Source of the DNA: Candidatus Latescibacterota bacterium
GTDB lineage: Bacteria; Latescibacterota; UBA2968; UBA8231
DNA: 64,000 bases
Direction: 5' to 3'
NCBI GenBank assembly: GCA_964291625.2
Contig: OZ220089.1
Span: 3,104,001 to 3,168,000 of the forward strand
Shown: positions 14,657 through 37,012 of the stretch, piece after piece
Layout: the number at the start of each line of letters is the position of its first letter
Numbering within the stretch: the stretch's first letter is position 1
Made by a program: the position numbers and the translations under genes
Notes under the pieces: model-generated
What the model saw: the letters and a program-made list of their open reading frames with translations, nothing else
What the model was told of the DNA's origin: nothing
The model's database searches: none

Positions 14657-14711
14657 GGGCGTCCGATCACAGCCGTCGAAGATAGCCAGGGCCTGGGAGG
14701 GCGCGAACCGC

Positions 14712-16253
14712 ATGGATATCGGATCGAGGAAGCAGCTCTTCGTCGACGATCGCTTCATCGCCGCCGGCCGCGGGGTGGAGCTGGTGATGAATCCGCCCCA
14801 CCAGGCCCCGGAGCCGGTGGTGACCGCCGGCGCCCCGTGGGAGGACCCGTCCGACACCAGCCTTGGCATCTACAGCAGCGTGCTTGGGGAGGATGGTCGC
14901 GTCCGGCTGTGGTACCACGTGCGCAGGGCCAGGGAGGATTCCGAGCGCAGCCTGGATCAGGCCTGCGTCGGTTATGCCGAATCGACGGACGGCATCCACT
15001 TCGACAAGCCGGAGCTGAACCTGATCGAAGAGGGCGGATCGACGGCGAACAACGTCGTCATCCCCGGCAAGATCGGCGGCAGCTCGGTCTGGATCGATCC
15101 GAATGCTCCACCCGGGGAGCGCTACAAGAACCAGTCGAAGGTCTACAATCCCGAAGTGGCGATGCAGTTCCACATGCACGGCTCGCCCGACGGTGTGCAC
15201 TGGAAGTTCCTCCGCCGCCTGCAGCTCCCTCACCGGGGCGGCTGGGACACGCAGAGCATCATCTTCTGGGATCCCGCCATCGGGCGCTACGTCCTCTACA
15301 CCCGCCGCTGGGTCGCCAAACGCCACACCACCGCCCAAGGGAACGAGAACTACCGGACCGTCAGACGGCTCGAGTCGGACGATCTGATCGACTGGGACAA
15401 CCAGAAGACGGTCATGTGGCCGGACGAGGAAGACCTGGCGACGTACGAGACCGGGGCGCCGCTGGATCCGACGGCGCCGGAGAAGCCCTACGGCCGGACG
15501 CCGATGGACTACTACGGCGCCACCGTGTTCAAGTACCCGGACCCGGACGGCGTGTACGTCATGCTCGCCAACGCCAACTGGTACTGGTTCAACCGCGAGC
15601 CGCTGGTGACCACGGTCCGCGACGACATGGATGTCCTGCGCACCGAGACGCAGCAGATCTACGGGCCCAGCCGCTTCGACGCGCGCCTGTCGGTGAGCCG
15701 CGACGGCGTGAACTTCCAGCGTTGCGGCGGCCGACGGCCCTTCCTGAGCCCGGGGCCCGAGGGCAGCTACTCCTCCCGCATGGTCTGGGCCATGCCCCGG
15801 CCGGTGCGGATGGGTGACGAGATCTGGCTCTACTACAGCGGCACCAACAGGGACCACGACGGCCTCGTCGACCCCGCGGCCCAGGGCCTGCTTTCCGGCA
15901 TCGGCCGCGCGGTGCTGCGGCTGGACGGGTTCGTGTCGGCCGATGCCGGCTACGGCGGCGGCGAGATCGTCACGCCCGTCGTCCGCTTCGAGGGGGAGCG
16001 ACTGGAGCTGAACGTCGACACCGGCGGCGGCGGCGCGGTGCGCGTGGAGCTTCAGGATGGGGAGGGCCGGCCGATCAGCGGCTACACCGAGGGCGACGCC
16101 GCCTGGATCTGCGGCAACTCGGTGCGCATGCCGGTGCGCTGGGGGAACAGCGGCGATGTCGGCCCTCTTGCCGGCCAACCGGTCCGGATCCGTTTCGTCA
16201 TGCGCGACTGCAAGCTCTACGCCTTTCAGTTCGTCGGATCGACGGCCTCGTGA
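14712..16253 (+). CDS. Putative five-bladed beta-propeller glycoside hydrolase-like protein
   Basis: QLFVDD, YAESTDGIHF, SRDGVNF, IWLYYSG, LRLDGFVS, KLYAFQF. Confidence 0.6.
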   Translation: MDIGSRKQLFVDDRFIAAGRGVELVMNPPHQAPEPVVTAGAPWEDPSDTSLGIYSSVLGEDGRVRLWYHVRRAREDSERSLDQACVGYAESTDGIHFDKPELNLIEEGGSTANNVVIPGKIGGSSVWIDPNAPPGERYKNQSKVYNPEVAMQFHMHGSPDGVHWKFLRRLQLPHRGGWDTQSIIFWDPAIGRYVLYTRRWVAKRHTTAQGNENYRTVRRLESDDLIDWDNQKTVMWPDEEDLATYETGAPLDPTAPEKPYGRTPMDYYGATVFKYPDPDGVYVMLANANWYWFNREPLVTTVRDDMDVLRTETQQIYGPSRFDARLSVSRDGVNFQRCGGRRPFLSPGPEGSYSSRMVWAMPRPVRMGDEIWLYYSGTNRDHDGLVDPAAQGLLSGIGRAVLRLDGFVSADAGYGGGEIVTPVVRFEGERLELNVDTGGGGAVRVELQDGEGRPISGYTEGDAAWICGNSVRMPVRWGNSGDVGPLAGQPVRIRFVMRDCKLYAFQFVGSTAS

Positions 16254-16339
16254 CGGGTCCTCGGGCTCTCGACGCCCGGGGCACGAGCAGGCCGGGGGGG
16301 TACCGTATATTTGGTGCAATCATGGATGCGATGTCCCCC

Positions 16340-17872
16340 ATGAGAGTGGAACCCTGGCGTGCCTGCCGCGGCTGGTTCCTGGCGCCGGTCGCCGTTGCCT
16401 GTTGCATCTCCGCTTGCTCCCTCGCCCCGAAGCAGACCCCCCCGACTCTCGAAGCGGTCGAGGAGTTGCCGGCCGGGTTTGCCGGCAGCGAGGCCGCCGG
16501 CCCGCACGAGCCGCTGCAGTGGTGGAAGAGCTTCGCGGACCCGGCCCTCGACCGCGTGATCGCGGCGGCCCTCGCCTCGAACTTCGACCTGGCCGAGGCG
16601 GTCGCCCGGGTCGATCAGGCCCGGGAGCGGGAACGCATCGCCAAAGCCTCGGCCTTCCCCTTCCTTCAGCCCTCCGTCGCCGTCAGCGACTCCGACACAC
16701 CTACCAACGCCGGCATCGGCGCCCAGTTCGACGAGCTGGGGCTGGGGATCGTCCTCCCCGACCGGCTCGGCCTGACCACCTACACCGCCGCCGCGGAAGT
16801 CGCCTACGAGCTCGACTTCTGGGGGCGCAACCGCAACGACGCCCGCGCCGCCGGAGCGCAGCGGCTGGCTTCGGAGTCGGACTACCTCACGGCCCGCATG
16901 GGGGTGCTGGCCGAGACCGTGCGGACCTGGCTGGAGATCGTCAACCTGCGCCGCCAGCGGCAGCTGGCAGGCGGGATCGTGGAGCTCCTGCAGGACCGGG
17001 AGTCGCTGGCCGAGTCGCGCTATGACCGCGGGCTGACCGACGACAGCGGCCCCCGTGCGGCTCGGCAGAGCCTGCGCAATGCCCAGGCCGAGCTGCCGCA
17101 GATCGAGGCCCTGCTGGCGGAGGCGGAGGGGCGGCTCTGGGTGCTTCTGGGGGGATACCGCGCCGAGCTGGCCGGGATACTGCCCGATTCACCGACCCCC
17201 GCCGCGGCGCTGGAACCGGTACCGGCGGGCATTCCGGCGGATCTCCTGGTGCAGCGGCCCGACGTCAGGGCGGCACGACAGCGGGTGGAAGCGGCCCGGT
17301 ACGCCGTCGGCGCCCGCCGCGCGGAGCTGCTGCCGAGACTGTCGCTGCACGGTTCCATCGGCGTGCAGAGCGCCGAGGCCGGTGAGTGGTTCGATCCGGA
17401 CCAGTGGTTCCGCAACCTGACTGTGAACCTCCTCGGCCCCGTCTTCCAGGGTTCCCGGCTGCGCGGCAATGTCGCCCTGGCCGAGGCCAGGCTGAGGGAA
17501 GCGGCCGCCGCCTACGGGCGGACCGTGGTGACCGCGGTCAACGAGGTCGAGGCCGCCCTCGCGGGGCTGGAGGCCGGCCGCCGCCGCCACTCGCTGCTGG
17601 TCTCCCTGACGGAGGAAGCCGGGGCCGAAGCCGACCTGCAGGAGCGGCGGTACCTCTCCGGAGTGGGCGAGTACGAGACCTGGCTGGCAGCGGCGCAGGT
17701 TCACCTGGGCGCGCAGTCGGTGCAGGCGGCGGCGGAGCGCGATCTGGGTTCCTTCCGTCTCGCGCTGCACCGGGCCCTGGGAGGGGCGTGGACCGCCGAC
17801 GACGGGGAGGCTGTCCAACAGAGTGACGCCGCGGTCGCCTCACCGCCTCTTCCCGCGACTTCCACGGAGTAA
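16340..17872 (+). CDS. Efflux outer-membrane lipoprotein (TolC/NodT/OprM family)
   Basis: Lipobox ISAC, WWKSFADPAL, YELDFWG, QRPDVRAA, LHRALGGAW; start uncertain (16322/16340). Confidence 0.9.
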   Translation: MRVEPWRACRGWFLAPVAVACCISACSLAPKQTPPTLEAVEELPAGFAGSEAAGPHEPLQWWKSFADPALDRVIAAALASNFDLAEAVARVDQARERERIAKASAFPFLQPSVAVSDSDTPTNAGIGAQFDELGLGIVLPDRLGLTTYTAAAEVAYELDFWGRNRNDARAAGAQRLASESDYLTARMGVLAETVRTWLEIVNLRRQRQLAGGIVELLQDRESLAESRYDRGLTDDSGPRAARQSLRNAQAELPQIEALLAEAEGRLWVLLGGYRAELAGILPDSPTPAAALEPVPAGIPADLLVQRPDVRAARQRVEAARYAVGARRAELLPRLSLHGSIGVQSAEAGEWFDPDQWFRNLTVNLLGPVFQGSRLRGNVALAEARLREAAAAYGRTVVTAVNEVEAALAGLEAGRRRHSLLVSLTEEAGAEADLQERRYLSGVGEYETWLAAAQVHLGAQSVQAAAERDLGSFRLALHRALGGAWTADDGEAVQQSDAAVASPPLPATSTE

Positions 17873-17879
17873 AACCGCC

Positions 17880-19078
17880 ATGTCCCGCATTGGCCGTGTC
17901 GTTTCCCGCATTCGCAGCTTCCTGATAGCCGGAGTCATCCTGGCTGCCTCCGTGGGTCTGGCCGCACTCCTGGTCTCACTGGCCCCCGAGCCGGCCCGCA
18001 CCGAGTCGCCGCCGCAGATCCCCTTCGCGCAGACGGCGCCGGTCAAGGCCGAGTCCGGCGCCATACCCGTGTACGGGGGCGGTACGGTGCGGCCGAGCGC
18101 CGAGATCGATGTGGCGCCGCAGGTGGGCGGACGAGTCGCCTGGGTGGACCGGGTTTCCAGAGCGGCGGCCGCGTGAAGGCGGGCCAGACGCTCTTCCGCC
18201 TCGAGGAGGCGGACTATCTCTACCGGGTGCAGGAGGCCAGGGCCAGTCTCGCCGCCCGCCGCGTGGCCCTGCTCCAGGAAGAGGAACAGGCGGCGATCGC
18301 CCGCGCCCAGTACGAGCTCTACTCCGAGCGGCAGGGGGCCGCGACTTCGCAGTCGGCCGCCAATCCCCTCACCCTGAGGGAGCCCCAGTTGGAGGCTGCC
18401 CGTGCCGCCCTCGGCCGCGACGAGGCCCTCGTGGCCGCCGCTGAACTCGCCCTCTCCAGGACCCGGGTGAACGCCCCCTTCGACGGCTTTGTCCGCGAGG
18501 AGTCCGTCGACGTGGGACAGATCGTCGCCCCCGGCCAGCCCGTGGGGCGGCTCTTCGCCGCCGACGCGGTGGAGGTGGTGGTGCCCGTGACCAATGCCGA
18601 GGCGGCCCTGATCCCGGGGCTGTGGGAGCTCAGGCCGGGCGACGGGGACCGGCGGGTGGGGGCCCGGGTGGTCGCCCGGTACGGCGGCGGCACCCACGCC
18701 CGGACAGGCTACGTCGACCGGGGCGAGACATCCGTCGACGAGCGGACCCGCACCGTCGACGTGATCGTGCGGGTTCCGGACCCGTTCGCCGGCAGCAACC
18801 CGTTGCTGGTGGGTGCCTTCGTGGAGGTGGAGATCGAGGGCCTCCGGCTGGACCGCTACTACAAGGTGCCACGAGCCGCGCTGCGGCCGGGGAACGAGGT
18901 CTGGCTGGCCGGGGAAGGCGGCCTCGTGAGCATCGTCCCCGTGCAGGTCCTGCAGCGCGGCGATGACGAGGTCTTCGTGACCGGCGGCCTGGAGAGCGGC
19001 GGCACCGTGGTCACCGGGGGGATCCGGTTCGCCACCGAGGGCATGCGCGTCCTGACGGGAGCCGCCCCGGCGCCATGA
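17880..19078 (+). pseudogene. RND periplasmic adaptor (MFP), split by a 1-nt deletion at ~18150 (frameshift or sequencing error)
   Basis: EIDVAPQVGGRVAWVD in one frame continues as GFQSGGRVKAGQTLFRL...APFDG in another. Confidence 0.8.
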
Positions 19079-22000
19079 GTCCCGCCAACGGCAACCACGA
19101 GGAACGGCCCGGACCGCTCGCCTACATGGCGGGCAACGGAGTGGCCGCCAATCTGCTGATGTGGGCCATCATCGCCGCCGGGCTGGTGTCGCTCACCGGC
19201 ATCGAGCGGGAAGCCTGGCCGACCACCCCCTTCTACCATATCGAAGTCTCCATGGCCTATCCCGGCGCCACGCCGGAGGAGATCGAGGAGTCGATCGTCG
19301 TCAAGATCGAGGACCAGGTCAGCGGGCTGGATGACGTGAAGGCGGTCAAGTCCGTAGCGGCCCCGGGCATGGCCTCCGTGCGCGTCCAGATGGACTTCGA
19401 CACGGACATGGCCCGGGCCCAGGACGATATCGAGTCCGCGGTCAATCGCATACAGTCCTTCCCGGCCGGCGCCGAACGTCCCCGGTTCCGGGAGATGAAC
19501 AACCGCATGAGCATGATGCGGCTCATCGTCCACGGCGATGTCTCCGAGCGCTCGCTGAAGGAACTGGCGCACCAGATCGAGGACGACCTCACCACGCTGC
19601 CCTCCGTCTCCCAGGTGGAAGTCAGCGGCGTCCGGAGCTACGAGATCTCCATCGAGGTGCCCCTTGCCCGCCTGAGGGCCCTCGGGCTCACGCTCGACGA
19701 CATCGCCGGCACGATCCGCCGCAGTTCCCTGGACCTGTCGGCCGGCAGCATCGATACCCGCGAGTCCCAGGTGCGGGTCCGCACCCTCGGCCAGAACTAC
19801 GACCAGCAGGACTTCGAGGAGATCGTCCTTCTCAGCGGCCGTGACGGCACGGTCCTGCGTCTCGGCGACATCGCCGAGGTCCGCGACGGTTTTCAGCAGA
19901 CCGACCTGATCGTCCGGCACCAGGACCGGCCGGCCGTGTTCGTGGAGGTCTTCCGGGCCGACGGCGAGCAGGTGATGGATGTGGCCACGAGCGTCCGGGA
20001 GCACCTGGCGAACGAGGTGGTCCCGGCCCTGCCCGACGGGGTGGGAGTCACCATCTGGAACGACGAATCCCAGGCGTATGAGGAACGGGCCGATCTGCTC
20101 CTCAAGAACGGTGTCCTCGGCCTGTTGCTGGTGCTGATCGCGCTCAGCCTGTTCCTCGAAGTCCGCCTCGCCCTGTGGGTCTCCGTGGGCCTCGTCGTCT
20201 CGGGCATGGGCGCCCTCGCCGTCATGATGGCATTCGACGTGGCGATCAACACCATCAGCCTGTTCTCCTTCGTCCTCGCCATAGGGATCGTCGTCGACGA
20301 TGCCATCGTCGTGGCCGAGCACATTCGATACGAACGCAAGCGGGGAACACCCGGGGTGGCGGCCGCGATCCGGGGTGTGCGGCGGATCAAGGTGCCCTTG
20401 ACCTTCGCCGTCCTCACTTCGGTGGTGGCCTTCGTCCCGCTGCTGTTCATCCCGGGCGGCGTCGGTGACGTGTGGCGGGCCCTGCCGATCATCCTCATCG
20501 CCATGCTGCTGGTCTCCCTCGTGGAATCGCTGCTGGTGCTGCCCAACCACCTGTCCCATCTGCACGGCCCGGAATGGGTGCCGGGCAATCCCTTCGACCG
20601 GTTCTTCGCCGGGCTCCAGGGCCGTGTCGACTCGCTGCTGAACCGGTTCGTGCAAGGGCCCCTGGACCGGGCCCTGCGGTTCGCCACGGACCAGCCCGGG
20701 GTGACGATGGCGGGGGCCGTGGGAATGCTCGTGCTGAGCATCTCCCTGCTGCCGGCGGGGATCGTCCCTACCACGCTGGCGGCGGACGTGGAGGGGGACA
20801 TCGCGACGGCCGTCCTGGAGATGCCCGACGGCGCGACCGCTTCGAGGACCTACGAAGTGGCGCAGGAACTCGAGGCCGCGGGCCACCGGGTCATCGAGCG
20901 GCTCTCGCGCGGCCGGCCCGGGGACGCGCCGCCGCTGCTGACCGGGGTCACGTTGACCGTGGGCCTGGGCTCGAGACTCGAGGGCGGGCTCAACCCGGAG
21001 CCAACCCTGAATCCGCAAGCCAATATCGCCACCATCGAGTTCAAGCTCCTGGGAGCCCAACAGAGGGAGATCTCCACCGGGGAGGTGGTGCAGGCGTGGC
21101 GGGAGGAGGTGGGTGTCCTGCCCTACGTTCGCGGCCTCACCTTCACCAGCGAGATCTTCACCCTGGGCAACCCGGTGGAGGCGGTGCTGTCCCATCCGGA
21201 CCCGGAGCGCCTCGCCCAGATCGCCGACACGGTGGTCGAGGGCCTCCGGGGAGTGGGAGGCGTCTACGACATCCGGTCGGACCACACTCCCGGCATCCCG
21301 GAATTCCAACTGGAGTTGCGGCCGGAAGCGCGGACCCTCGGTCTCACGGTGCAGGAGCTGGCGGGGCAGGCGCGCGCCGCCTTCTTCGGCGCCGAGGCCG
21401 TCCGGGTGCAGCGCGGCCGGGAAGAGGTGCGGGTCTACGTGCGTCTGCCCGGGGAAGAGCGGAACTCCATCACCGATGTCGAAGGCTACCTGGTGCGCAC
21501 GCCGGGGGGGGCCGAGGTCCCGGTCATCAGCGTCGCCTCCGTGAACCCGGGGGTGTCGCCCACGGCGGTCCGGCGCAGGGATGGCCAGCGCGTCGTCACG
21601 GTCACCGCCGACGTGGACCCTTCGGTGATCTCCGGCGACGAAGCCAACGAGATCCTGGCCAGTTCGATCCTCGCGGACCTGACCGCCGTGTACCCGGCCC
21701 TGACATACACGTTCGGTGGGGAACAGCAGCAGCAGCTGGAGTCCCTGGACGCGCTCTACCGCGGCTTTGCCGTCGCCCTGATCATGATCTTCGCGCTCCT
21801 CGCCATCCCCCTCCGCTCGTATACCAAGCCGTTCATCATCATGGCCGTGATCCCCTTCGGCTTCATCGGCGTGATCCTGGGCCACTGGATCCTGGGAGTC
21901 GCCCTGAGCGCCGTCTCCTTCATGGGGATCTTCGGTCTGAGCGGGGTGGTGGTGAACGATTCCCTGGTCATGATCGATTTCATCGATCAGAAACTCGGGG

Positions 22001-22269
22001 AAGGCTCCCCGGCCAGAGCTGCGATCGTGGAGGGCGCCAAGGGGCGCTTCCGTCCGATCATGCTCACTTCGGTGACGACCTTCCTCGGCTTCACGCCCCT
22101 CATCCTGGAACGCGCCATCCAGGCCCAGTTCCTGGTCCCCTTTGCGGCGTCGCTCGGTTGCGGCATTCTCTTCACCACGGCCATACTCATGATGGTCGTT
22201 CCCGCGCTGTGCACCATACATCTGCGTCTGATGGCCTGGCGGCGCCCCTCCGCCGCCACTACCGCGTGA
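19075..22269 (+). CDS. RND efflux permease (AcrB/AcrD/AcrF family)
   Basis: 1064 aa; GIVVDDAIVVAE, SGVVVNDS, RFRPIMLTSVTT. Confidence 0.92.
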   Translation: MSPANGNHEERPGPLAYMAGNGVAANLLMWAIIAAGLVSLTGIEREAWPTTPFYHIEVSMAYPGATPEEIEESIVVKIEDQVSGLDDVKAVKSVAAPGMASVRVQMDFDTDMARAQDDIESAVNRIQSFPAGAERPRFREMNNRMSMMRLIVHGDVSERSLKELAHQIEDDLTTLPSVSQVEVSGVRSYEISIEVPLARLRALGLTLDDIAGTIRRSSLDLSAGSIDTRESQVRVRTLGQNYDQQDFEEIVLLSGRDGTVLRLGDIAEVRDGFQQTDLIVRHQDRPAVFVEVFRADGEQVMDVATSVREHLANEVVPALPDGVGVTIWNDESQAYEERADLLLKNGVLGLLLVLIALSLFLEVRLALWVSVGLVVSGMGALAVMMAFDVAINTISLFSFVLAIGIVVDDAIVVAEHIRYERKRGTPGVAAAIRGVRRIKVPLTFAVLTSVVAFVPLLFIPGGVGDVWRALPIILIAMLLVSLVESLLVLPNHLSHLHGPEWVPGNPFDRFFAGLQGRVDSLLNRFVQGPLDRALRFATDQPGVTMAGAVGMLVLSISLLPAGIVPTTLAADVEGDIATAVLEMPDGATASRTYEVAQELEAAGHRVIERLSRGRPGDAPPLLTGVTLTVGLGSRLEGGLNPEPTLNPQANIATIEFKLLGAQQREISTGEVVQAWREEVGVLPYVRGLTFTSEIFTLGNPVEAVLSHPDPERLAQIADTVVEGLRGVGGVYDIRSDHTPGIPEFQLELRPEARTLGLTVQELAGQARAAFFGAEAVRVQRGREEVRVYVRLPGEERNSITDVEGYLVRTPGGAEVPVISVASVNPGVSPTAVRRRDGQRVVTVTADVDPSVISGDEANEILASSILADLTAVYPALTYTFGGEQQQQLESLDALYRGFAVALIMIFALLAIPLRSYTKPFIIMAVIPFGFIGVILGHWILGVALSAVSFMGIFGLSGVVVNDSLVMIDFIDQKLGEGSPARAAIVEGAKGRFRPIMLTSVTTFLGFTPLILERAIQAQFLVPFAASLGCGILFTTAILMMVVPALCTIHLRLMAWRRPSAATTA

Positions 22270-22299: not shown

Positions 22300-24333
22300 A
22301 TGGCTGACTCGACCGAGGGTTTGACGACCCAACCGCTGACTCTGACTCAGGAACTCATCCTCATGCTCCTCAGCGAGGAGACCGGCTACTTTCACCAGGT
22401 ACCCGGATGGCATCTGCACTGCGCCGTCATCGGCGCCGTGCTCGCGGAGCTTTCACTCCAATCTCGCATCGACACCGACATGGAGTCCCTGTTCCTCGTG
22501 GACGAGTCGGAGACGGGCAACCCGGCCCTGGACCCCATTCTGAAGGAGATTGCAGCCGAGTCCGTTCAACGGAACGCCCAGTACTGGATCGAACGGCTCG
22601 CTCCCCGGGCGGAGTCGATCATCGATTCGGTCCTGGACCGCCTGGTGGACCTGAAGATCCTGGAGTACCACGATGGGGAATTCTGGACACTGGCTCCCAC
22701 CGTCTGGCATGGGGAACTGCCCGACCAGTCGGAAGAGGGCAATGCAGGCCAGTTCATAAAGACGCGGATCAGCAGGGTCATCTTCACCGACGAGATTCCC
22801 GATCCGAGAGATGTGATCATCATCTGCCTCGTCAATACCTGCGACATCTTTCGTTTCATATTCCAGCTCGACGAGGAGGCGGAGGAGCGCATCGAGTTCA
22901 TCTGCAGGATGGACCTGATCGGCCGCTCCCTGGCCGCCGCGGTCTCTCAGAACCTCGCCGTCCCGTCCCTTCAAAGTTCTGCCCTCCACAGGAAGATTCC
23001 GACGGTCTCCCTGACCAGGCTGCTGCGCAACCCCCATGCTCGAGACGGCAACCTGAACGCGCTCTTCGGGAACCTGGCGGAGGAGTACGGCCCGGTCTTC
23101 CAGATCCGCCCTCCTCTCTCGAAGCCCATGATTTTCCTGGCCGGACCCGAAACGAACCGCTGGGTGCACAAGCGCGGGCGCATGTACCTGAGAGCCAGGG
23201 ACTACTTCAGCGACTTCGAGAAGGTCTACGGCGCCTCCGGCGTCCTGCCCGCCCTGGACGGGGCCGATCACTTCCGGCTTCGCAAGTCCTTGTCGCCGGC
23301 CTATTCCGGCGGCAGGCTGGGAGGGCAGCTGGACCAGCTCTACAACCTGGGGCGCAAGTACCTGGCGAGCCTGACGGTCGGGGACTCCTACCGCGCCACG
23401 TCCATGTGCCGGGAGATGGTGAACGCCCAGCTCTCGCCACTCTTCATCGGCGTCGACACCCAGGACCTCATGGACGACCTGATGGCCTACAAAATGCGGG
23501 CCCTCAGCGTACACGTGGCCAAGGTCCTGCCCAAGTTCACGCTCAACACCCCGGGCATGAAACGCCGGGCGAAAGCCCTGGACACACTGATGGAGCGGGT
23601 CCAGGGCGTCCATACCCCCGCCCAACGGGCGGACTCCCCGCGGGACCTGGTGGACGATTACCTCAGCCTCCACGCGAGCGACCCCCAGTTCCTCCCGGAG
23701 TCCAACCTGCGGTTCGCCTTCTCGGCGGCCCTGATTGCCAGCGTGTACCTCGGCGACACGTTCAGCCTCGTAGTCTACGCCATGGCGTCGCAGCCCGACC
23801 TCTACGCCAGGATCCAGGCCGAAGCCGATGCCCTCTTCGCCAAGGGCGACCCCGGGAGAGAGGAGTTCACCCCCGCCAACATCGACGTGACGCACCGGTT
23901 CCTCATGGAATGCCTGCGCATGTACCCCATCGTCTCCATGTCCATTCGGAACGTGATGAACACGTGCGTGGTCGAGGACTACGAGCTGCCCGTGGGGGAA
24001 CGGCTCCACATCGCCATGACCGCCACACACTACATGAGCGACATCTTTCCCGACCCCGGCAAGTTCGACATCGACCGCTACCTGCCGCCGCGCCAGGAGC
24101 ATCGCAGCCCCGGGTACGCCCCGTACGGGCTGGGCACGCACAAGTGTCTCGGCACCCGGTGGATGGAGCTGCACCTGGCGGCGAACCTGCTGATGCTGGC
24201 GCACTACTTCACGATCGAGGTGACGCCGGAGAAGTTCAAGTCCAGGCTCCGTTTCAGTCCGTTCCCGTCGCTGAAGCCGAGCAAGAAGCTGAGGTTCCGC
24301 ATCTCCGGGCAGAGGCGCGAGCTGCCCGCCTGA
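22300..24333 (+). CDS. Cytochrome P450 with N-terminal GPP34/GOLPH3-like domain
   Basis: N-term LTLTQELILMLLSEETG...GAVLAELSLQSRI (GPP34 pattern); C-term ECLR (ExxR), FDIDRY, YGLGTHKCLG heme-Cys. Confidence 0.85.
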   Translation: MADSTEGLTTQPLTLTQELILMLLSEETGYFHQVPGWHLHCAVIGAVLAELSLQSRIDTDMESLFLVDESETGNPALDPILKEIAAESVQRNAQYWIERLAPRAESIIDSVLDRLVDLKILEYHDGEFWTLAPTVWHGELPDQSEEGNAGQFIKTRISRVIFTDEIPDPRDVIIICLVNTCDIFRFIFQLDEEAEERIEFICRMDLIGRSLAAAVSQNLAVPSLQSSALHRKIPTVSLTRLLRNPHARDGNLNALFGNLAEEYGPVFQIRPPLSKPMIFLAGPETNRWVHKRGRMYLRARDYFSDFEKVYGASGVLPALDGADHFRLRKSLSPAYSGGRLGGQLDQLYNLGRKYLASLTVGDSYRATSMCREMVNAQLSPLFIGVDTQDLMDDLMAYKMRALSVHVAKVLPKFTLNTPGMKRRAKALDTLMERVQGVHTPAQRADSPRDLVDDYLSLHASDPQFLPESNLRFAFSAALIASVYLGDTFSLVVYAMASQPDLYARIQAEADALFAKGDPGREEFTPANIDVTHRFLMECLRMYPIVSMSIRNVMNTCVVEDYELPVGERLHIAMTATHYMSDIFPDPGKFDIDRYLPPRQEHRSPGYAPYGLGTHKCLGTRWMELHLAANLLMLAHYFTIEVTPEKFKSRLRFSPFPSLKPSKKLRFRISGQRRELPA

Positions 24334-24344
24334 GGGCCCACGGA

Positions 24345-25379
24345 ATGGGGCTGGCGAAACTGTCGAGAGGGCTGAGAGACGCGTACCGGGGATCGGGCGT
24401 CGCGGCTCGAGTCCGGCACTTCCACGGCTGGCTCGACAGGGCGGCGCCGGAGGCTGGCGGCGCGGGCGGGTACGACCACACGGAGACGGTCAAGGACTAC
24501 TACGACCTCTGCAGCGGCTTCATGGTGTGGGGCTGGGGCGAGTCCCTGCACTTCGCGCCCCTCGCGCCTCATGAGAGTCTGGAGGAGTCCAAGGTCCGCC
24601 ACCAGCGGATGATGATCTCCGAGTTGGAGCTGCAACCGGGTATGACGGTGGTCGACGTGGGTTGTGGAGTCGGCGGCCCCATGCGCCGCGTCGTCCGCGA
24701 GGCCGGGGTCAGGGTCGTGGGTGTCAACATCAACGAGATCCAGTTGCAGGAGGCGAAGAGGTTGACCGCCGAGGCGGGGCTCGATCACATGGTCGACTTC
24801 GAGACGTGCAGCTTCATGGACATGAGCGCCATCGAGGACGACACCTTCGACCGGGGGTATGCCATCGAGTCAACGTGCCATGCGCCGGACAAGCAGCGCT
24901 CTTTCGCGGAGATACTGCGCGTGCTGAAACCGGGCGGCCTGCTCTGGGGGCAGGAGATGTGTCTGACGGACCGGTTCGATCCCAAGGACGACCGGCACCG
25001 GGCCATCAGGCAGGATCTCATGCACGGCATTGCGCTGAAGGAGATCGCCACCTTCGGGGAAGTGAATCAGGCGCTCGAAGCGGCGGGATTCCAACTCGTG
25101 CAAGGGATGGACCGGGGCGTCCAGGAGGGACCCTCCACGCCCTGGTACCAGCCCATGGTGGGTCGCCACGGGACGTTGGGGAACGCTCTTCGCAGGCTTC
25201 CGTGGGGCCGCAAAGGGGCCATCGCAGGATCGAAGCTGGCTGAAGTACTGCGGATTTTTCCGAAGGGCTCGGCGGAGGTCGTCCGGCTTCTCGATCGCAC
25301 CGCGGAGGCTTACATCGCGGGCGGCAAGGCGGGCATCTTCACGCCCCTGTACTGTTTCCTGGCTCGCAAGCCGCTGTAG
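24345..25379 (+). CDS. Sterol C-24-methyltransferase (SMT/Erg6-like)
   Basis: YYD...WGWGESLHFAP, VDVGCGVGGPMR, YAIESTCHAP, LKPGG, C-terminal GIFTPLYCFLARKP. Confidence 0.85.
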   Translation: MGLAKLSRGLRDAYRGSGVAARVRHFHGWLDRAAPEAGGAGGYDHTETVKDYYDLCSGFMVWGWGESLHFAPLAPHESLEESKVRHQRMMISELELQPGMTVVDVGCGVGGPMRRVVREAGVRVVGVNINEIQLQEAKRLTAEAGLDHMVDFETCSFMDMSAIEDDTFDRGYAIESTCHAPDKQRSFAEILRVLKPGGLLWGQEMCLTDRFDPKDDRHRAIRQDLMHGIALKEIATFGEVNQALEAAGFQLVQGMDRGVQEGPSTPWYQPMVGRHGTLGNALRRLPWGRKGAIAGSKLAEVLRIFPKGSAEVVRLLDRTAEAYIAGGKAGIFTPLYCFLARKPL

Positions 25380-25404: not shown

Positions 25405-26775
25405 GTGGCCGGACCGCGGCGGATCGCCATCGTCGGCGGAGGCGTTTCGGGACTCGGGGCCGCCTGGGCCCTGCAACGCCACCCCGACCGGTTCGACTTC
25501 CGCCTCTTCGAGGCCGGGGACCGGGTCGGCGGGAACGCGGTCACCGCCGACATGCCGCAGGACCACGGCCCCCCCATTCCCTTCGACATTTCGGTGACCG
25601 CCTGCATTCCGTCGGTCTACCGGCACATCCTCCTGTTGATGGAACAGTTCGGCATCGAGCTGGTCGATACCCGGTTCAGCTACAGCGTGAGGTACCGGGG
25701 CCGCGTCTACGCCCACGACTTCGAGTCCGAGATCAGGGATGAGCTGCGGGTCGAGATCGCCCGGTTCCAGCGGCTCCTGGGGCGCCTGCGCCGGATCGGC
25801 TGGCTGACCCGGTCCCGGTCGAGGTTCCTGAACGCTCTCAATCCCTTCAACTACATCAGCATGGGGACGGTCCTGAACCTGGGCGGCTTCTCCGGGGACT
25901 TCAGGTACAAGATCCTGAAGCCGATGTTCGTCAACTTCCTGATGGCGACCAACGTCTTCGACATGCCCGCGGCCCTCTTTGCGAGGTACCTCGAGTTCTT
26001 CGACATCGAGACCGCCACCCCCATGCAGACGTGGGACCGGGGAACGCGGCGGATCTACGAGCACCTGTGCGCCGGCTTCCGGGACAGGATCTACCTGGGC
26101 CGGCCGGTCCGCAAGGTCTGGCGCGAGTCGTCCCGCGTCGTGGTGGAGGACGAGGACGGGGAGCGGGAGGTTTTCGACGGGGTGATCTTCGCCTGCAACG
26201 CCAACCAGACGCTGATGATCCTCGACCGGCCGACGTTGATGGAGAGGCACCTGCTATCGTCGATACGCTACGAGAGCGAGCTCCACAACCACACGGTCGT
26301 CCACTGCGACGCCTCGGTACTTCCGGATGACGAGGCCAAGCCCCTGACGACGCGCAGCAATCACATCGAGCAGTACGGCGCCCGGCCGGACAACTACGAG
26401 ATCACCTACATCATGCACAACCAGCAGCCCTGGGCCAGGCAGTCGGACAGGCCCTGTCTGGTGACCTACAACCCGGTGAGCCCCATCGATGCGGAGAAGG
26501 TCATCGGAAGGTGGTGGTTCCAGCACATCGTCCATGACGTGCGCCACGTGGCCCTCCTCGTCCCCCTGTTCCGCTTCATCCAGGGGAAGAGGCGGACCTG
26601 GCACTGCGGCGCCCATACGCTGGTCAACAGCCAGGAGACCTGCTTCGTCAGCGGCCTGGCCGCGGCCCGGCAGATCGGCGCCGACTATCCCTTCGACGAC
26701 CCCGAGGCGAGACGGTCCTTCAACCACTACGGGAGCATCATGTACGGCTGGCGGTTCCGCAAAGCGAAGGGCTGA
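25405..26775 (+). CDS. FAD-dependent oxidoreductase (amine-oxidase/COG2907-like)
   Basis: IAIVGGGVSGLGAAW, FEAGDRVGG, QGKRRTWHCGA, SGLAAARQIG. Confidence 0.8.
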   Translation: MAGPRRIAIVGGGVSGLGAAWALQRHPDRFDFRLFEAGDRVGGNAVTADMPQDHGPPIPFDISVTACIPSVYRHILLLMEQFGIELVDTRFSYSVRYRGRVYAHDFESEIRDELRVEIARFQRLLGRLRRIGWLTRSRSRFLNALNPFNYISMGTVLNLGGFSGDFRYKILKPMFVNFLMATNVFDMPAALFARYLEFFDIETATPMQTWDRGTRRIYEHLCAGFRDRIYLGRPVRKVWRESSRVVVEDEDGEREVFDGVIFACNANQTLMILDRPTLMERHLLSSIRYESELHNHTVVHCDASVLPDDEAKPLTTRSNHIEQYGARPDNYEITYIMHNQQPWARQSDRPCLVTYNPVSPIDAEKVIGRWWFQHIVHDVRHVALLVPLFRFIQGKRRTWHCGAHTLVNSQETCFVSGLAAARQIGADYPFDDPEARRSFNHYGSIMYGWRFRKAKG

Positions 26776-26800: not shown

Positions 26801-27853
26801 CTATCCCTCCGGACCGGGGTAGAACTGGCGGCAGTAGCGGCGGTACGCGCCGATGGGGCCGTCGGCGCGGCAGAGGCGGGGGGGCGTCCGGTAGCGTTTG
26901 CGTTCCCAGATCACCACGTCCTGGAGCACATCCCGCTTCTGCTGGGAGAGCAGGATCTGATTCATCAACCTCCTGCGCAGTTTCCCTGGCAGGAAACCGA
27001 GGCCGGAGATGAATCGCCGGGGTTTGCGGATCTCGCGCAGTTGGCTGACCAGGACAAGATCGAGGAGTGATCCATCGACAGGTGTGGGGAGTACCCACAG
27101 CCGCGCATGCATGTCGATCGTCTTCTCGTGGATCTCGACGAAGGAGTAGCCCAGGCCGTGGAGGTGGGTGACGGCCGAGACTTCGTACGCCTGGTCCTTT
27201 ACACCCAGTATCCGGCGAACCCGCTTGAAGTCGAAGCAACTCCGCAGGTAGGCGCCGTCGACCGTCAGTGAGCCGACGGGATTCACATTGTCGTAGCCGT
27301 GGACGTAGCGCAGGTGGCCCAGGTCCACGGAGTTCTCCGCCGTTTCCTGGGGATGGGCGCGGAACCGGAGGGTGCGGAATCCGAGGGGGCCCCACTCCTG
27401 GCCGGTGGCCGGGTCCTCCGGGAGGTGCCAGTGCGCGGGACGGCCGCCGCTCCCGAACCAGGCGAAGACCAGGCCGAGGACCTCCCGGGTCTCGTACACC
27501 TTCAGCCTGGCGGCTCTCGGGGCCGGGGCGTTGGGAGTGGCAACGCACTGGCCGGCGGCGTCGAACTCGAAGCCGTGAAAGGGACAGACGAGGCGGCCGT
27601 TGCACACCTTGCCGCCCACGCCGGGGCCCAGGGACGAGCCCAGGTGCGGGCACAGGGAGTCGGCCACGCATACACGGCCTTCGTCGTCGCACCAGACGAC
27701 GATCTCCTCGCCCAGCCAGGTCTTCTCGATCAGTCTCTCCCGCAGAATCGACTCACGGCTGGCGACGAAGTACCACCCCTCGGGGAAGGGGGGCAGGTCA
27801 CGATCGCCATCCGCGGCTGCGGTCCGCGGGGCCTCGGGTCCCGACGAAGACAT
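26801..27853 (-). CDS. Rieske non-heme iron oxygenase/desaturase (Neverland/KshA-like)
   Basis: PPFPEGWY, CPHLG...CPFHG Rieske motif, ENSVDLGHLRYVH Fe motif, QDVVIWERK. Confidence 0.8.
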   Translation of the reverse strand: MSSSGPEAPRTAAADGDRDLPPFPEGWYFVASRESILRERLIEKTWLGEEIVVWCDDEGRVCVADSLCPHLGSSLGPGVGGKVCNGRLVCPFHGFEFDAAGQCVATPNAPAPRAARLKVYETREVLGLVFAWFGSGGRPAHWHLPEDPATGQEWGPLGFRTLRFRAHPQETAENSVDLGHLRYVHGYDNVNPVGSLTVDGAYLRSCFDFKRVRRILGVKDQAYEVSAVTHLHGLGYSFVEIHEKTIDMHARLWVLPTPVDGSLLDLVLVSQLREIRKPRRFISGLGFLPGKLRRRLMNQILLSQQKRDVLQDVVIWERKRYRTPPRLCRADGPIGAYRRYCRQFYPGPEG

Positions 27854-27893
27854 GAATCCAATGTACGAAAGGTCCGGCCAGTATATTGGGGTC

Positions 27894-28301
27894 ATGACCT
27901 TCGAGAAGGCCGCGGCGTCGGACGTGGAGGAGCTGGCCGAGCTCAACCGGCAGCTCATCGAGGACGAGCGCCATCCCAACCCCATGGACCGCCCCCAGTT
28001 GGCCGAGCGCATGGCCGGCTGGCTGCGGGAAGGGTACACCTGCTACCTGGCGAGAGAGAGCGGGACGACCGTCGCCTACTGCCTCTACCGCGACGACGGC
28101 GACCACTACTACCTGCGCCAGCTCTTCGTCGCCCGGACCCATCGCCGGCGGGGCATCGCCACGGCGGTGATGGACTGGATGTACGCCAACATCTGGACCG
28201 ACAGGCGGGTCCGCCTCGACGTTCTCGCCCACAACGAGGAGGCCGCCGCCTTCTACCGGGCCTACGGGTTCCGGGTCGCCGTCCTGCGCATGGAGAAGTG
28301 A
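27894..28301 (+). CDS. GNAT family N-acetyltransferase
   Basis: LFVARTHRRRGIAT, NEEAAAFYRAYGF. Confidence 0.85.
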   Translation: MTFEKAAASDVEELAELNRQLIEDERHPNPMDRPQLAERMAGWLREGYTCYLARESGTTVAYCLYRDDGDHYYLRQLFVARTHRRRGIATAVMDWMYANIWTDRRVRLDVLAHNEEAAAFYRAYGFRVAVLRMEK

Positions 28302-29273: not shown

Positions 29274-31970
29274 CTACTTGAGCAGCAGCAGCTTGCGCGT
29301 GTCGACCCGGGTCCTGGCCCGCAGCCTGTAGAGATACACGCCGCTGGCGAGCTCCCGCCCGAGGTCGTCGCGGCCGTCCCACGTGACCGAGTGCCTCCCC
29401 GGATCCAGGACCGTGCCCAGCAGACTGCGGGTTTTCTGTCCGGCGAGATTGTAGATCGCGAGCTCGGCATCGCCCCGCACGTGGACCGAGAACTCGATCA
29501 CGGTCTCCGGGTTGAAGGGGTTGGGATGGTTCTGCTCCAGCCGGAACTCGTGGGGCCGGGAGGCCGGCTGCGTCACGGCGGTGAGCGCCGTCAGCTCGGT
29601 CAACGCCTGCAGCACCTGGATCCGCGCCTCGTCCGCCAGCGTGCGGTCGATCCGGCTGAGCCAGTGGGTCTCCAAACCCGCGGCGTCCAGGACGCCGGCG
29701 GGCAGCTCCTCCAGCAGGCGCCGCGCCTCCTCCACCTCCGGCCCGGCCACCCCCTGCTCCGCCGCCTTGCGGATCTCCCCGTCCAGCATGGCGAAGTACT
29801 CGTAGTCCTCCACCCCTTCGCGCACCGCCTCGAGCTGCTTGCCGGCCGTCACCGAGCCCTCGTCGAGAAAGAGCGGCGCGTACGAGTCCTTCGAGGCCGG
29901 ATACTCGTTCCACGATGATCCCCCGCCCGTGTCGCCGAAGGACCAGAAGTGCATCCCCGTCGCACCGTAGCGCCAGCAGGTCCACGCCGTCAGGCGGCCG
30001 GCGTACGGATCGAAGAGGCGCGTCGCCCACGCCGAGTAGAACTCCAGGGCGATCCCCTGGTCGCGCTTTCTCGCGTAGTAGTCGCGGTAGTCCTGGCCCG
30101 CTTCCAGGAAGATCTGGCGGTGGGGGGACAGGACGTGGCAGGCGTCGATCATCGCCTCCTTCGCCTGGCTCATGTCGCGGTGGTTGGGGTTCTCCCAGAT
30201 GCGGACCCCCGTCTCCGCCTCGCGGATCGCCCGCGCCCACGCCAGGATGCGCTCGTCATGTCGCGGCTCCCGCGGCTCGTCCACGAGGAGCAGCGCCAGC
30301 TGCTCAGGCTCCAACCCCTTCGCCTGCATGTGTCCCGCCCAGAACGTCACCCACTCCCTCACCGCCGTCGCGAACTCCGGCGTGCCCATCTCCCACGAGA
30401 GGAAGTGGGTGCCCACCTTCGCGAAGACGAGGTACCGGGCCGCGCCCGGCCACAACTCGAGCCATGCATCGAAGTGGTCCGTGTCGGGAGGCGCCGTCAT
30501 CGCCCCCTGCGCATCGTGGGTGCCCCGCGGCAGCGCCCAAGGCAGTCCCCATGGCGAGTCGACGAGGCGCTCGCGCAGGTGCCGGATCAGCGCCGGCCGG
30601 TTCCGCTCCGTCACCAGGCGGTGATGGCCGACCTGGTCCGTGTAGTCCCAGCCACCCAGGTGAAGGGACTGCTCCTGGGGGAAGTCGAGGGGATAGAGGT
30701 GCATGCGCAACGGTAAGCGAGGGCCGCCGGACTCCACGACGACCTCGCCCTCGTACGCGCCCGGCGCCACGTCCACGGGATGGAAGGTGAGCCACACCTG
30801 GCGGGTCATGCCCGAGGGTACGGAGACCGCGTACCGTTCATTCTCGGCAGAGATCTCCGGCAGGGCCGCCGCCACCGGCACCCCGGTGCGCGTGTCCGTC
30901 CAGGCCACCTCGTGGACGGTCACGTACGCCGGGTTGTCGCCCCCGGGCAGGCCGCTCAGCCGGAAGGGGACCTGCACCGGCTCGTCGCTGCTGTTGCTCA
31001 CGTTGAAGGCGGCGGCGCGGTATTCCCCGCGCATCAGGTGGACCTCGACGGCCGGTTCCGCCGTCGTGTCCGGGTTGCCGATGAGGGGCAGGGGATCCCA
31101 CAGGTTCGAGCGCCAGAAGGTGAGCGGCTCCAGCCCCCGGGCGCGCCAGAGCCGCGCCTGGGCGCGCAGCACGCGCTCGTGCCACGGATTGAGGGGCAGC
31201 ACCGCCCGGAAGTCGTCCCCGAAGGCCGCGCCGGCCTGGGCCAGCTCCTCCTCCACGGCTGCCAGCCCGTCAAGCACCTCGCCCCGCGTCTGCGCCGGGA
31301 CCCCCTCTTCCTCGGCCGCCCTCCTCAGGGCCTGCATGTCCCGCGAGAGGCGGGTCCGGATCCCCGCCTGGATGGCGAGCCGGCCCGCGTACGCCCTGAG
31401 GTCCGCGATCCCCGGCCCCGGCAGCGGCTCGTCGACCCACTCGGGGTCGCCCGCGTAGACCTCGATCTCGTCGACGAAGGTGAAGGGCTCGTTCCACACG
31501 ACCAAGCTCACATGGCGGCCGTGGGTGCGCAGCTCATCCGTCCAGTAGCGGTGCGTCCCGTACCCCGAGGCGGAAGGGGAGCCGTGTTCCGCGCCCAGCT
31601 CCACCAGGTCCCCGATCTCGTGGAAGAGCCCGTCCTCGCCGGCCGTGAAGATCCCGATCGCCAGGGGCCACCTCACGTCCGCCGATCCCCCCGCCGTGCT
31701 GAAGGAGACCCCCCGTATGGGCCTCACCGCGCCCAGGTCGATCGTCACGATGACGGGCTTCTTCTCCTGCCAGCCCACGGTCGACAGCTGGGTCCAGAAG
31801 TAGCCCTCCGTGTAGACACCGTCCGTCAGCTGCACGCCGTCGCCGTCGTCCGTGCTGTGCGCGTAGTTCGGCGCCGGGTCGAGGGTGTAGCTCGCCCCGA
31901 GGGCCACGTTCTGCTGGGCCCACGCGGGTCCCGCCACCAACCACGCCGCCGCTGCCAGGGCCCGGTTCAT
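29274..31970 (-). CDS. Secreted DUF4091/GH123-like protein with discoidin-like N-terminus and FlgD-Ig/T9SS-like C-terminal domain
   Basis: Signal peptide, LTDG...IDLG, DEP, EAVREGVEDYEY, QNHPNPFNPET...WDGRD...ASGVYLYRL. Confidence 0.7.
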   Translation of the reverse strand: MNRALAAAAWLVAGPAWAQQNVALGASYTLDPAPNYAHSTDDGDGVQLTDGVYTEGYFWTQLSTVGWQEKKPVIVTIDLGAVRPIRGVSFSTAGGSADVRWPLAIGIFTAGEDGLFHEIGDLVELGAEHGSPSASGYGTHRYWTDELRTHGRHVSLVVWNEPFTFVDEIEVYAGDPEWVDEPLPGPGIADLRAYAGRLAIQAGIRTRLSRDMQALRRAAEEEGVPAQTRGEVLDGLAAVEEELAQAGAAFGDDFRAVLPLNPWHERVLRAQARLWRARGLEPLTFWRSNLWDPLPLIGNPDTTAEPAVEVHLMRGEYRAAAFNVSNSSDEPVQVPFRLSGLPGGDNPAYVTVHEVAWTDTRTGVPVAAALPEISAENERYAVSVPSGMTRQVWLTFHPVDVAPGAYEGEVVVESGGPRLPLRMHLYPLDFPQEQSLHLGGWDYTDQVGHHRLVTERNRPALIRHLRERLVDSPWGLPWALPRGTHDAQGAMTAPPDTDHFDAWLELWPGAARYLVFAKVGTHFLSWEMGTPEFATAVREWVTFWAGHMQAKGLEPEQLALLLVDEPREPRHDERILAWARAIREAETGVRIWENPNHRDMSQAKEAMIDACHVLSPHRQIFLEAGQDYRDYYARKRDQGIALEFYSAWATRLFDPYAGRLTAWTCWRYGATGMHFWSFGDTGGGSSWNEYPASKDSYAPLFLDEGSVTAGKQLEAVREGVEDYEYFAMLDGEIRKAAEQGVAGPEVEEARRLLEELPAGVLDAAGLETHWLSRIDRTLADEARIQVLQALTELTALTAVTQPASRPHEFRLEQNHPNPFNPETVIEFSVHVRGDAELAIYNLAGQKTRSLLGTVLDPGRHSVTWDGRDDLGRELASGVYLYRLRARTRVDTRKLLLLK

Positions 31971-36968: not shown

Positions 36969-37012
36969 GGAGAGACTCCCTTCCTCCCGGAGGACCGGAG
37001 CATGGGGAACCC

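Follow-up and report, generated by a model that had tools for sequence, protein, structure and literature searches.

A GPP34-cytochrome P450 fusion in a bacterial operon with efflux and putative sterol-tailoring genes

Architecture of the fusion

The subject of this study is a gene encoding a GPP34 domain fused to a cytochrome P450 in a Candidatus Latescibacterota bacterium (assembly GCA_964291625.2). It lies in a 64,000-nucleotide stretch of contig OZ220089.1 (positions 3,104,001-3,168,000, forward strand), the whole of which we call the window and to which all plain coordinates refer. The gene (22300-24333, + strand) is a single open reading frame of 677 codons with an ATG start, and is the fourth of a same-strand series encoding an outer-membrane efflux protein, a membrane-fusion protein, an RND permease, the fusion, a methyltransferase of the sterol methyltransferase family and an oxidoreductase of the flavin adenine dinucleotide (FAD) type, with gaps of at most 30 nt.

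The GPP34 domain (PF05719) occupies residues 15-216 (22342-22947) and is matched over profile positions 1-199 of 201 (E 4.1e-28; 99.3 bits against a curated Pfam cut-off of 29.1), and the P450 domain (PF00067) occupies residues ~229-677 (22984-24330; E 1.1e-33; 117.1 bits against a cut-off of 22.8). The translation contains the GPP34 strings LTLTQELILMLLSEETG (residues 13-29), GAVLAELSLQSRI (45-57) and LVDLKIL (115-121). Residue 260 of the fusion pairs with chain residue 40 of the CYP120A1 structure 2ve3, and the P450 fold therefore begins near residue 220-230. The two domains are joined by a linker of ~15 residues (~217-232), followed by a proline (Pro234) that is invariant among 45 aligned fusions. 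An earlier, sequence-only reading of this DNA had described some 215 GPP34-like N-terminal residues in frame with a complete P450; the description was right in every detail, from the two Pfam domains and the motifs to the start of the P450 fold.

The same reading had raised the prospect of an assembly artefact. That the fusion arose in assembly or gene calling is now scarcely conceivable. Both Pfam domains are present in all of the 120 best relatives listed from a collection of 5.8 billion proteins (73-100% identity, 673-686 amino acids), many of which sit on Mb-sized contigs, and orthologs free of internal stops occur in dozens of independent assemblies. The G+C content at the third codon position is 0.78-0.96 in 13 out of 13 consecutive 150-nt blocks of one frame, and this uniformity leaves no room for a frame change at the domain junction. 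Finally, a 716-nt contig from an independent run bridges the junction (22876-23591).

The fusion is widespread. Ortholog-level matches (53-100% identity) were found in 42 of 168 genomes of the phylum, three of them as fragments at contig ends. At 50% clustering, 373 representatives have E < 1e-30, including dozens of full-length proteins (650-690 amino acids, 26-41% identity), and the named ones belong to Gemmatimonadota (Candidatus Palauibacter), Caldilineaceae, Acidimicrobiaceae, Candidatus Poriferisodalis and Gammaproteobacteria. Sequencing runs that match the window stretch are mostly labelled sponge metagenome. This applies to three of the four runs that were compared, with pieces showing 0-2 differences on the fusion and on the boundary between fusion and methyltransferase genes. 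One of the three sponge-labelled runs is a metatranscriptome library, a weak sign of transcription because DNA may also be present in such a library; all runs consist of short contigs, the depth, gaps and joints of which are uninformative on transcripts or deletions.

The architecture is not new. It was described in 2025 as GPP34_L (Ferreira et al., Microbiome 2025; PMC11706023), the main text of which counts 663 long GPP34 proteins in sponge symbionts, 656 of them with GPP34 joined to PF00067. The earlier reading had taken bacterial GPP34 proteins to be usually stand-alone and uncharacterised; the fused form, however, is neither uncommon nor new to the literature.

The P450 part carries the heme-ligand motif YGLGTHKCLG at residues 609-618 and the ExxR motif (ECLR) at 537-540, and C616, E537 and R540 are invariant in 45/45 aligned full-length fusions. 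The column of the I-helix threonine holds T in 28 of these and Y in 11, including the window protein, in a region of ambiguous alignment. At 23737-23760 (residues 480-487), the window protein and its clade read A-S-V-Y against the usual A-G-x-(D)-T, and a G-D-T follows two residues later in the window protein. Either the alignment is shifted here or the usual oxygen-activating threonine would be missing from this clade. Among solved structures, those of CYP51 (E 1.8e-18) and CYP120 (E 6.7e-17) come closest, and the nearest unfused P450 relatives carry the name 'Cytochrome P450 120'. An identity as CYP51 was rejected; the best CYP51 match covers residues 406-652 only, and the nearest unfused relatives bear the CYP120 name. 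The fusion is the sole P450 in the genome, and its gene has a G+C content of 0.636, in the lowest 8% of 2-kb windows of a genome with 0.696.

Operon and neighbourhood in orthologous loci

The first gene of the recognisable operon encodes the TolC-like outer-membrane efflux protein (16250-17869, +; PF02321, E 9.5e-40), and the next open reading frame, 4 nt away, encodes the membrane-fusion protein, a periplasmic adaptor (17873-19075, +; HlyD_3 and HlyD_D23), which starts at 17873 or 18173. These are followed by the RND permease, a protein of 1064 amino acids of the AcrB/AcrD/AcrF family (19075-22269, +; ACR_tran, E 1.1e-156). The methyltransferase gene (24345-25379, +; 344 amino acids) begins 11 nt downstream of the fusion; its product has a Sterol_MT_C domain (PF08498, E 3.5e-16; 59.5 bits against a Pfam cut-off of 21.7) at residues 283-343, behind class-I methyltransferase domains, and is the only Sterol_MT_C protein in the genome. 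The FAD enzyme (25405-26775, +; 456 amino acids) is amine-oxidase-like (Amino_oxidase, E 1.8e-18) and has LkcE (6f7l, E 3.8e-29) as its best solved relative. On the opposite strand lies the gene of a KshA-type Rieske non-heme-iron oxygenase (26801-28039, -; Rieske and KshA_C, E 1.4e-22), the best solved relatives of which are the KshA structures 4qdf, 4qdc and 2zyl (E 9e-21 to 3e-18). Against the model of the 4-beta-methylsterol monooxygenase SdmA it scores 36 bits with a cut-off of 600, and it is assigned as KshA_C-type at the family level only. NCBIfam names for all five operon proteins scanned were sub-threshold. The start of the Rieske protein is probably over-called by ~60-80 codons, because orthologs align only from about residue 60-80.

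Fifteen orthologous loci from other genomes were compared for synteny. The RND gene adjoins the fusion in every one of them (80-97% identity), and the adaptor gene is found in 13. The Rieske gene is likewise found in 13; the remaining two loci are truncated at contig ends. The methyltransferase is present in 7/15, all within a subclade at 79% identity or above, and the FAD enzyme in 6/15. From these counts, pump, fusion and Rieske oxygenase make up the core, to which the methyltransferase was added later.

Several further features surround the operon. The Rieske frame and that of a GNAT acetyltransferase (27579-28301, +) overlap by ~460 nt on opposite strands. A 532-residue protein without a Pfam family (14655-16250, +) abuts the gene of the outer-membrane efflux protein and has no match beside the operon in the 15 ortholog loci. 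Two large proteins (29277-31970, - and 34839-37679, -) have FlgD Ig-like C-termini, to which the second adds an LDL-receptor class B repeat, DUF5050 and a weak match to Por_Secre_tail; both may be secreted, eukaryote-like surface proteins.

Paralogous and Chloroflexota fusions

The 168 genomes of the phylum hold a further 29 full-length paralogous fusions with 32-39% identity to the window protein. Our survey of their surroundings covered 26 fusions in 25 loci, that is, all but G079:C212, G144:C1:396740 and G129:C1:1306720. Genes for sulfotransferases of the type using 3'-phosphoadenosine 5'-phosphosulfate (PAPS), frequently two or three per locus, lie no more than ~2 genes from the fusion in 20/25 loci; five of these proteins in four loci were confirmed by Pfam, and the others were assigned by 45-98% identity to those five. 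A membrane acyltransferase (Acyl_transf_3) occurs in four loci, two of which also have a GT1-like glycosyltransferase and one of which also has a sulfotransferase. In one locus the neighbours are a kinase and an MFS exporter, and one other contains nothing recognisable. The G+C content is 0.49-0.61 in 24 of the 25 loci and is lower than in the ortholog-type loci examined. In one locus (L043:3321-5000, -), an Acyl_transf_3 protein with ankyrin repeats is encoded between the paralogous fusion and its sulfotransferase. A single in-frame stop interrupts each of three other paralogs (G092:C1:2988103-2990079, TGA; G146:C13:3348739-3350739, TAG; G085:C1:3096012-3098021, TGA), which may be decaying copies or assembly errors.

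In metagenome-assembled genomes (MAGs) of Chloroflexota, retrieved with the single protein P0162 as the query, eight loci extend downstream of the fusion, and in all eight the next genes encode a kinase related to the APH and ecdysteroid-kinase-like (EcKL) families and an MFS exporter of the TRI12 type. One Gemmatimonadota locus shows the same order of fusion, kinase and exporter. Within Chloroflexota, the fusions are 67-82% identical between Caldilineaceae and Dehalococcoidia/SAR202 MAGs. Between Gemmatimonadota (L051, G091:C2) and Chloroflexota (L062-L070), the fusion, kinase and exporter of the three-gene cassette share 75%, 72% and 68% protein identity. These values suggest that the cassette has passed as a unit from one phylum to the other. 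On sequence grounds, this looks like horizontal transfer among co-resident symbionts. In a maximum-likelihood tree of 52 fusions (mafft and FastTree), the type of neighbourhood follows the clade. Metagenome scans returned no loci with P0223 as the query; with P0228 as the query, they returned 80 loci that matched the P450 part only (from residue 200, 19-30% identity), representing distant unfused P450s with no fusion context.

Taken across the family, exporters and enzymes of small-molecule tailoring surround the fusion in 15/15 ortholog, 24/25 paralog and 8/8 Chloroflexota loci. This recurrent pairing with conjugating enzymes and exporters is undescribed in the literature searched. The main text of PMC11706023 contains none of the terms 'sterol', 'sulfotransferase', 'sulfat' or 'efflux', and our searches turned up no paper in which GPP34 is connected to sterols or sulfotransferases; the supplements of PMC11706023 (flanking genes) and PMC10070321 (cluster tables) may bear on whether the neighbourhoods are in fact unreported.

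The GPP34 domain

Searched against solved proteins, a profile of 15 GPP34 domains matches 3kn1 (E 4.8e-10), 2zii (E 6.3e-10) and 9qpq (E 9.7e-10), as well as the Vps74 structures 2zih and 4tu3 (E 5e-10 to 1e-9); the single GPP34 sequence of the window reaches only E 0.72. With a profile match to GOLPH3/Vps74 at E ~1e-9, homology is secure. The residues lining the pocket for phosphatidylinositol 4-phosphate (PI4P) in GOLPH3, which we take to be W81, R90, R171 and R174 in a numbering that agrees with the 9qpq alignment, align to P35, I44, E106 and I109 of the window protein, so that none of the four is conserved, although shifts of a few residues are possible at this low identity. None of the 15 domains has a basic residue in the R90 column, Arg occurs in the R174 column only among paralogs and in the stand-alone form, and a stretch of 10 residues that precedes R171 in GOLPH3 is absent from the window domain.

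The domain is also strongly acidic. The GPP34 part of the window protein (residues 1-228) has an isoelectric point (pI) of 4.3 and a net charge of -24, and all 15 domains fall within a pI of 4.3-4.9 and a net charge of -10 to -25. The P450 part has a basic pI of 9.4 and a net charge of +12. The alignment reveals no basic/hydrophobic signal-peptide or Sec/Tat-like pattern at the N-terminus of the fusion, and the only 19-residue span of strong hydrophobicity (172-190) belongs to the conserved core of the GPP34 domain. These features argue against a GOLPH3-type PI4P anchor and against classical secretion of the fusion. The earlier reading had seen in the domain a lipid-binding membrane anchor. 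That mechanism does not transfer from GOLPH3, considering the lost pocket and the acidic charge, but the position of the domain ahead of the P450 fold would allow it to anchor or position the enzyme in some other way. Its place there, together with the fusions of GPP34 to Rieske and ABC-ATPase domains reported in the main text of PMC11706023, is compatible with a module for positioning or for substrate handover.

A different function was put forward in the main text of Ferreira et al. (2025; PMC11706023), according to which GPP34 proteins, among them the long form, act as secreted effectors that bind the PI4P of the host phagosome and stall its maturation, the P450 assisting somehow. In favour of this, the domain is genuinely homologous to GOLPH3/Vps74, and the paper describes GPP34_L as confined to sponge symbionts and as present in 92.6% of 54 sponge Gemmatimonadota, to which our three sponge-labelled runs out of four can be added. 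For the fusions studied here, we nevertheless find this role unlikely. Apart from the missing pocket residues, the negative charge of all 15 domains and the lack of a Sec/Tat-like N-terminus, the P450 keeps all its catalytic residues and therefore needs heme and a redox partner, and the gene sits inside exporter and tailoring operons in nearly every locus of the three groups surveyed.

The GPP34 domain could also be a docking or regulatory partner of its own P450 domain, for example over the redox-partner face or the substrate channel, with no role at the membrane. An acidic domain tied to a basic one by a linker of ~15 residues would suit such an arrangement, as would the location of stand-alone GPP34 genes at most 5 genes from a P450 in 8/13 and 17/19 actinobacterial genomes (main text of PMC11706023). 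The fusions to Rieske and ABC-ATPase domains mentioned above argue for a more general role, and we regard a purely intramolecular function as improbable.

The genome also has a stand-alone GPP34 gene (G000:C1:2118752-2119372, -; locus L001:1456-2112), the product of which has 219 amino acids and is 40% identical to the fused domain. It is conserved at 65-84% identity in 20/20 other genomes compared (L074-L093). A SulP sulfate permease with a STAS domain is encoded nearby in 10/21 loci, which may be mere shared synteny. A 424-residue gene beside the stand-alone form was rejected as its partner; it has no Pfam family and is conserved at that place in 0/20 other genomes.

Sterol link and sterol supply

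The genome (5.9 Mb in 2 contigs, 95% complete) gave no match to SQHop_cyclase_C, SQHop_cyclase_N or SE (squalene epoxidase). A full-length cyclase was found in only 3 of the 168 genomes of the phylum, and in none of the eight that have the methyltransferase beside the fusion (G000, G160, G105, G087, G072, G107, G135 and G055; 93-97% complete). With neither epoxidase nor cyclase in the genome, the substrate therefore probably comes from the host or the surroundings rather than from de novo synthesis. One of the three full-length cyclases is encoded on a related 6-kb contig (L037): a squalene epoxidase gene precedes the cyclase gene, and both are convergent with the gene of a P450 that is 54% identical to that of the window. 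The epoxidase of L037 (2055-3436) is split into two overlapping open reading frames, one with the FAD_binding_3 part and one with the SE part, representing a frameshift or sequencing error. From gene content, L037 and the cyclase survey suggest that the ortholog clade is tied to sterol chemistry and that most carriers would act on a sterol they do not make themselves.

A lone homologue of the ERG4/ERG24 family of sterol reductases is encoded elsewhere in the genome (PF01222, E 3.5e-36; G000:C1:828019-829149, -; locus L073:8020-9156). Its gene has a G+C content of 0.627, below that of the genome, and adjoins a DUF4411/M78-peptidase pair.

The earlier reading had brought the P450 to membrane sterols by way of a lipid-binding anchor. 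The link to sterols gains support from context, namely the Sterol_MT_C enzyme, the KshA_C Rieske protein, the epoxidase and cyclase of L037 and the ERG4/ERG24 homologue; the anchoring mechanism does not. The modules may instead be detoxification or biosynthetic cassettes for non-steroid lipophiles, such as sponge terpenoids, polyketides or retinoid-like isoprenoids, with the sterol-like annotations being a coincidence at the family level. CYP120A1 is a retinoic-acid hydroxylase, and the nearest unfused P450s are CYP120-like; the FAD enzyme is LkcE-like; the TRI12-type MFS, EamA and RND exporters are generic; and the methyltransferase is missing from 8/15 ortholog loci. We are doubtful of this explanation, since several independent neighbours from steroid families recur, to which the EcKL kinases of the other loci belong along with the pointers just listed.

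Proposed role

The interpretation that we favour, at about even odds, is that the fusion, a member of GPP34_L, serves as the oxidation step of an 'oxidise, conjugate, export' module for sterol-like lipids derived from the host. The architecture and its conservation, the neighbourhoods, the lack of a cyclase and the lost pocket residues are observed; what kind of substrate is used, where in the cell the protein works and what the GPP34 domain contributes are inferred. The protein is an intact heme-thiolate P450 of CYP120/CYP51-like type with an N-terminal GPP34 domain, and most likely acts within the bacterial cell, at the cytoplasmic face of the inner membrane. In a small operon for tailoring a sterol-like lipid, probably acquired from the host or the surroundings, it may carry out the oxidation, with further steps in this genome possibly catalysed by the sterol-type C-methyltransferase, the KshA-like Rieske oxygenase and the FAD oxidase. 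The tailored lipid would then be expelled by the TolC-MFP-RND pump. Elsewhere in the family, the second step may be sulfation, phosphorylation, acylation or glycosylation, and the exporter may be of the MFS or EamA type. The GPP34 domain is best pictured as a non-catalytic module that may place the P450 at the membrane or its lipid substrate, or hand the substrate over, by a route other than the PI4P pocket of GOLPH3.

Several points weigh against this interpretation. An acidic GPP34 domain is unlike a binder of anionic bacterial membranes, which weakens the idea of an anchor. Each pointer to steroids is weak by itself: Sterol_MT_C marks a family and not a substrate, the Rieske protein stays far below the SdmA cut-off, the FAD enzyme resembles LkcE of polyketide chemistry, and the sulfotransferase (best E 6e-8, to an unnamed protein) and the kinase (E 2e-4) have no informative solved relatives. 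L037 comes from a 77%-complete bin and preserves only the last 205 residues of its P450, and the absence of a cyclase from bins that are 93-97% complete is not proof of absence. The operon has no gene for a redox partner. The surveyed loci stem from related genomes, and counts such as 15/15 or 24/25 describe a pattern rather than independent events. Lastly, the enrichment in sponge symbionts reported in the main text of PMC11706023 fits a host-directed role as well.

A broader possibility, advanced tentatively, is that cassettes of the 'oxidise, conjugate, export' kind move horizontally, with the fusion as their first step, and that sponge symbionts of several phyla remodel host sterols with them. 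This would comprise C-24 alkylation by bacteria unable to make sterols, and also hydroxylation with subsequent sulfation, one way to the sulfated sterols that sponges are known to contain. The GPP34 domain would then serve in sterol handling or membrane docking rather than as a PI4P effector. The architecture adds nothing beyond the 2025 paper; the neighbourhoods give the family a concrete biochemical setting outside the published effector model. If the fusions do act on sterols, bacteria without a sterol pathway could alkylate or sulfate the sterols of their host, which bears on the reading of side-chain-alkylated steranes as biomarkers of sponges, and bacterial GPP34 domains would have their first functional handle.

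Comparison with known systems

The closest counterpart is GPP34_L itself. The window protein has the identical architecture of an N-terminal GPP34 domain and PF00067, and may share the connection to sponges, to judge from the labels of the matching runs; Gemmatimonadota are listed in the paper (PMC11706023). The main text of that paper presents a host-directed PI4P effector and does not include neighbourhoods of the long form, whereas the contexts described here point to small-molecule metabolism inside the bacterium. GOLPH3 and Vps74 (3kn1, 9qpq, 2zii, 2zih and 4tu3) share a homologous domain according to both the Pfam model and the profile search, but the window domain lacks the four PI4P-pocket residues, is strongly acidic and is fused to an enzyme.

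On the P450 side, the best solved relatives are methanotroph CYP51 (7jj1, 6mi0 and 6mcw) and CYP120A1 (2ve3). The similarity is distant. One of these structures, 6mcw, is itself a natural P450 fusion of 551 amino acids; the GPP34 partner in the window protein differs in having no redox cofactor motif. The microsomal P450s of eukaryotes carry an N-terminal membrane anchor in the form of a transmembrane helix. Both they and the fusion have a non-catalytic N-terminal module directly before the Pro-containing start of the P450 fold. In the window protein the module is a globular domain of 215 residues instead of a helix, and its membrane association is putative.

Two steroid systems relate to the neighbours of the fusion. 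In the 3-ketosteroid 9-alpha-hydroxylase KshA/KshB, KshA is the best solved relative of the neighbouring Rieske protein and shares its KshA_C domain, but the identity is low and the operon has no KshB-type reductase. The bacterial sterol methyltransferase clusters (Brown et al., 2023; PMC10070321) and the steroid clusters of Ircinia symbionts (PMC9531527) likewise combine a Sterol_MT_C enzyme with a Rieske oxygenase in sponge-associated bacteria. The passages on these clusters make no mention of a GPP34 domain and present them as de novo routes with an oxidosqualene cyclase. The adjacent cyclase is matched in a single related contig, L037, whereas the eight genomes that carry the methyltransferase beside the fusion are without one.

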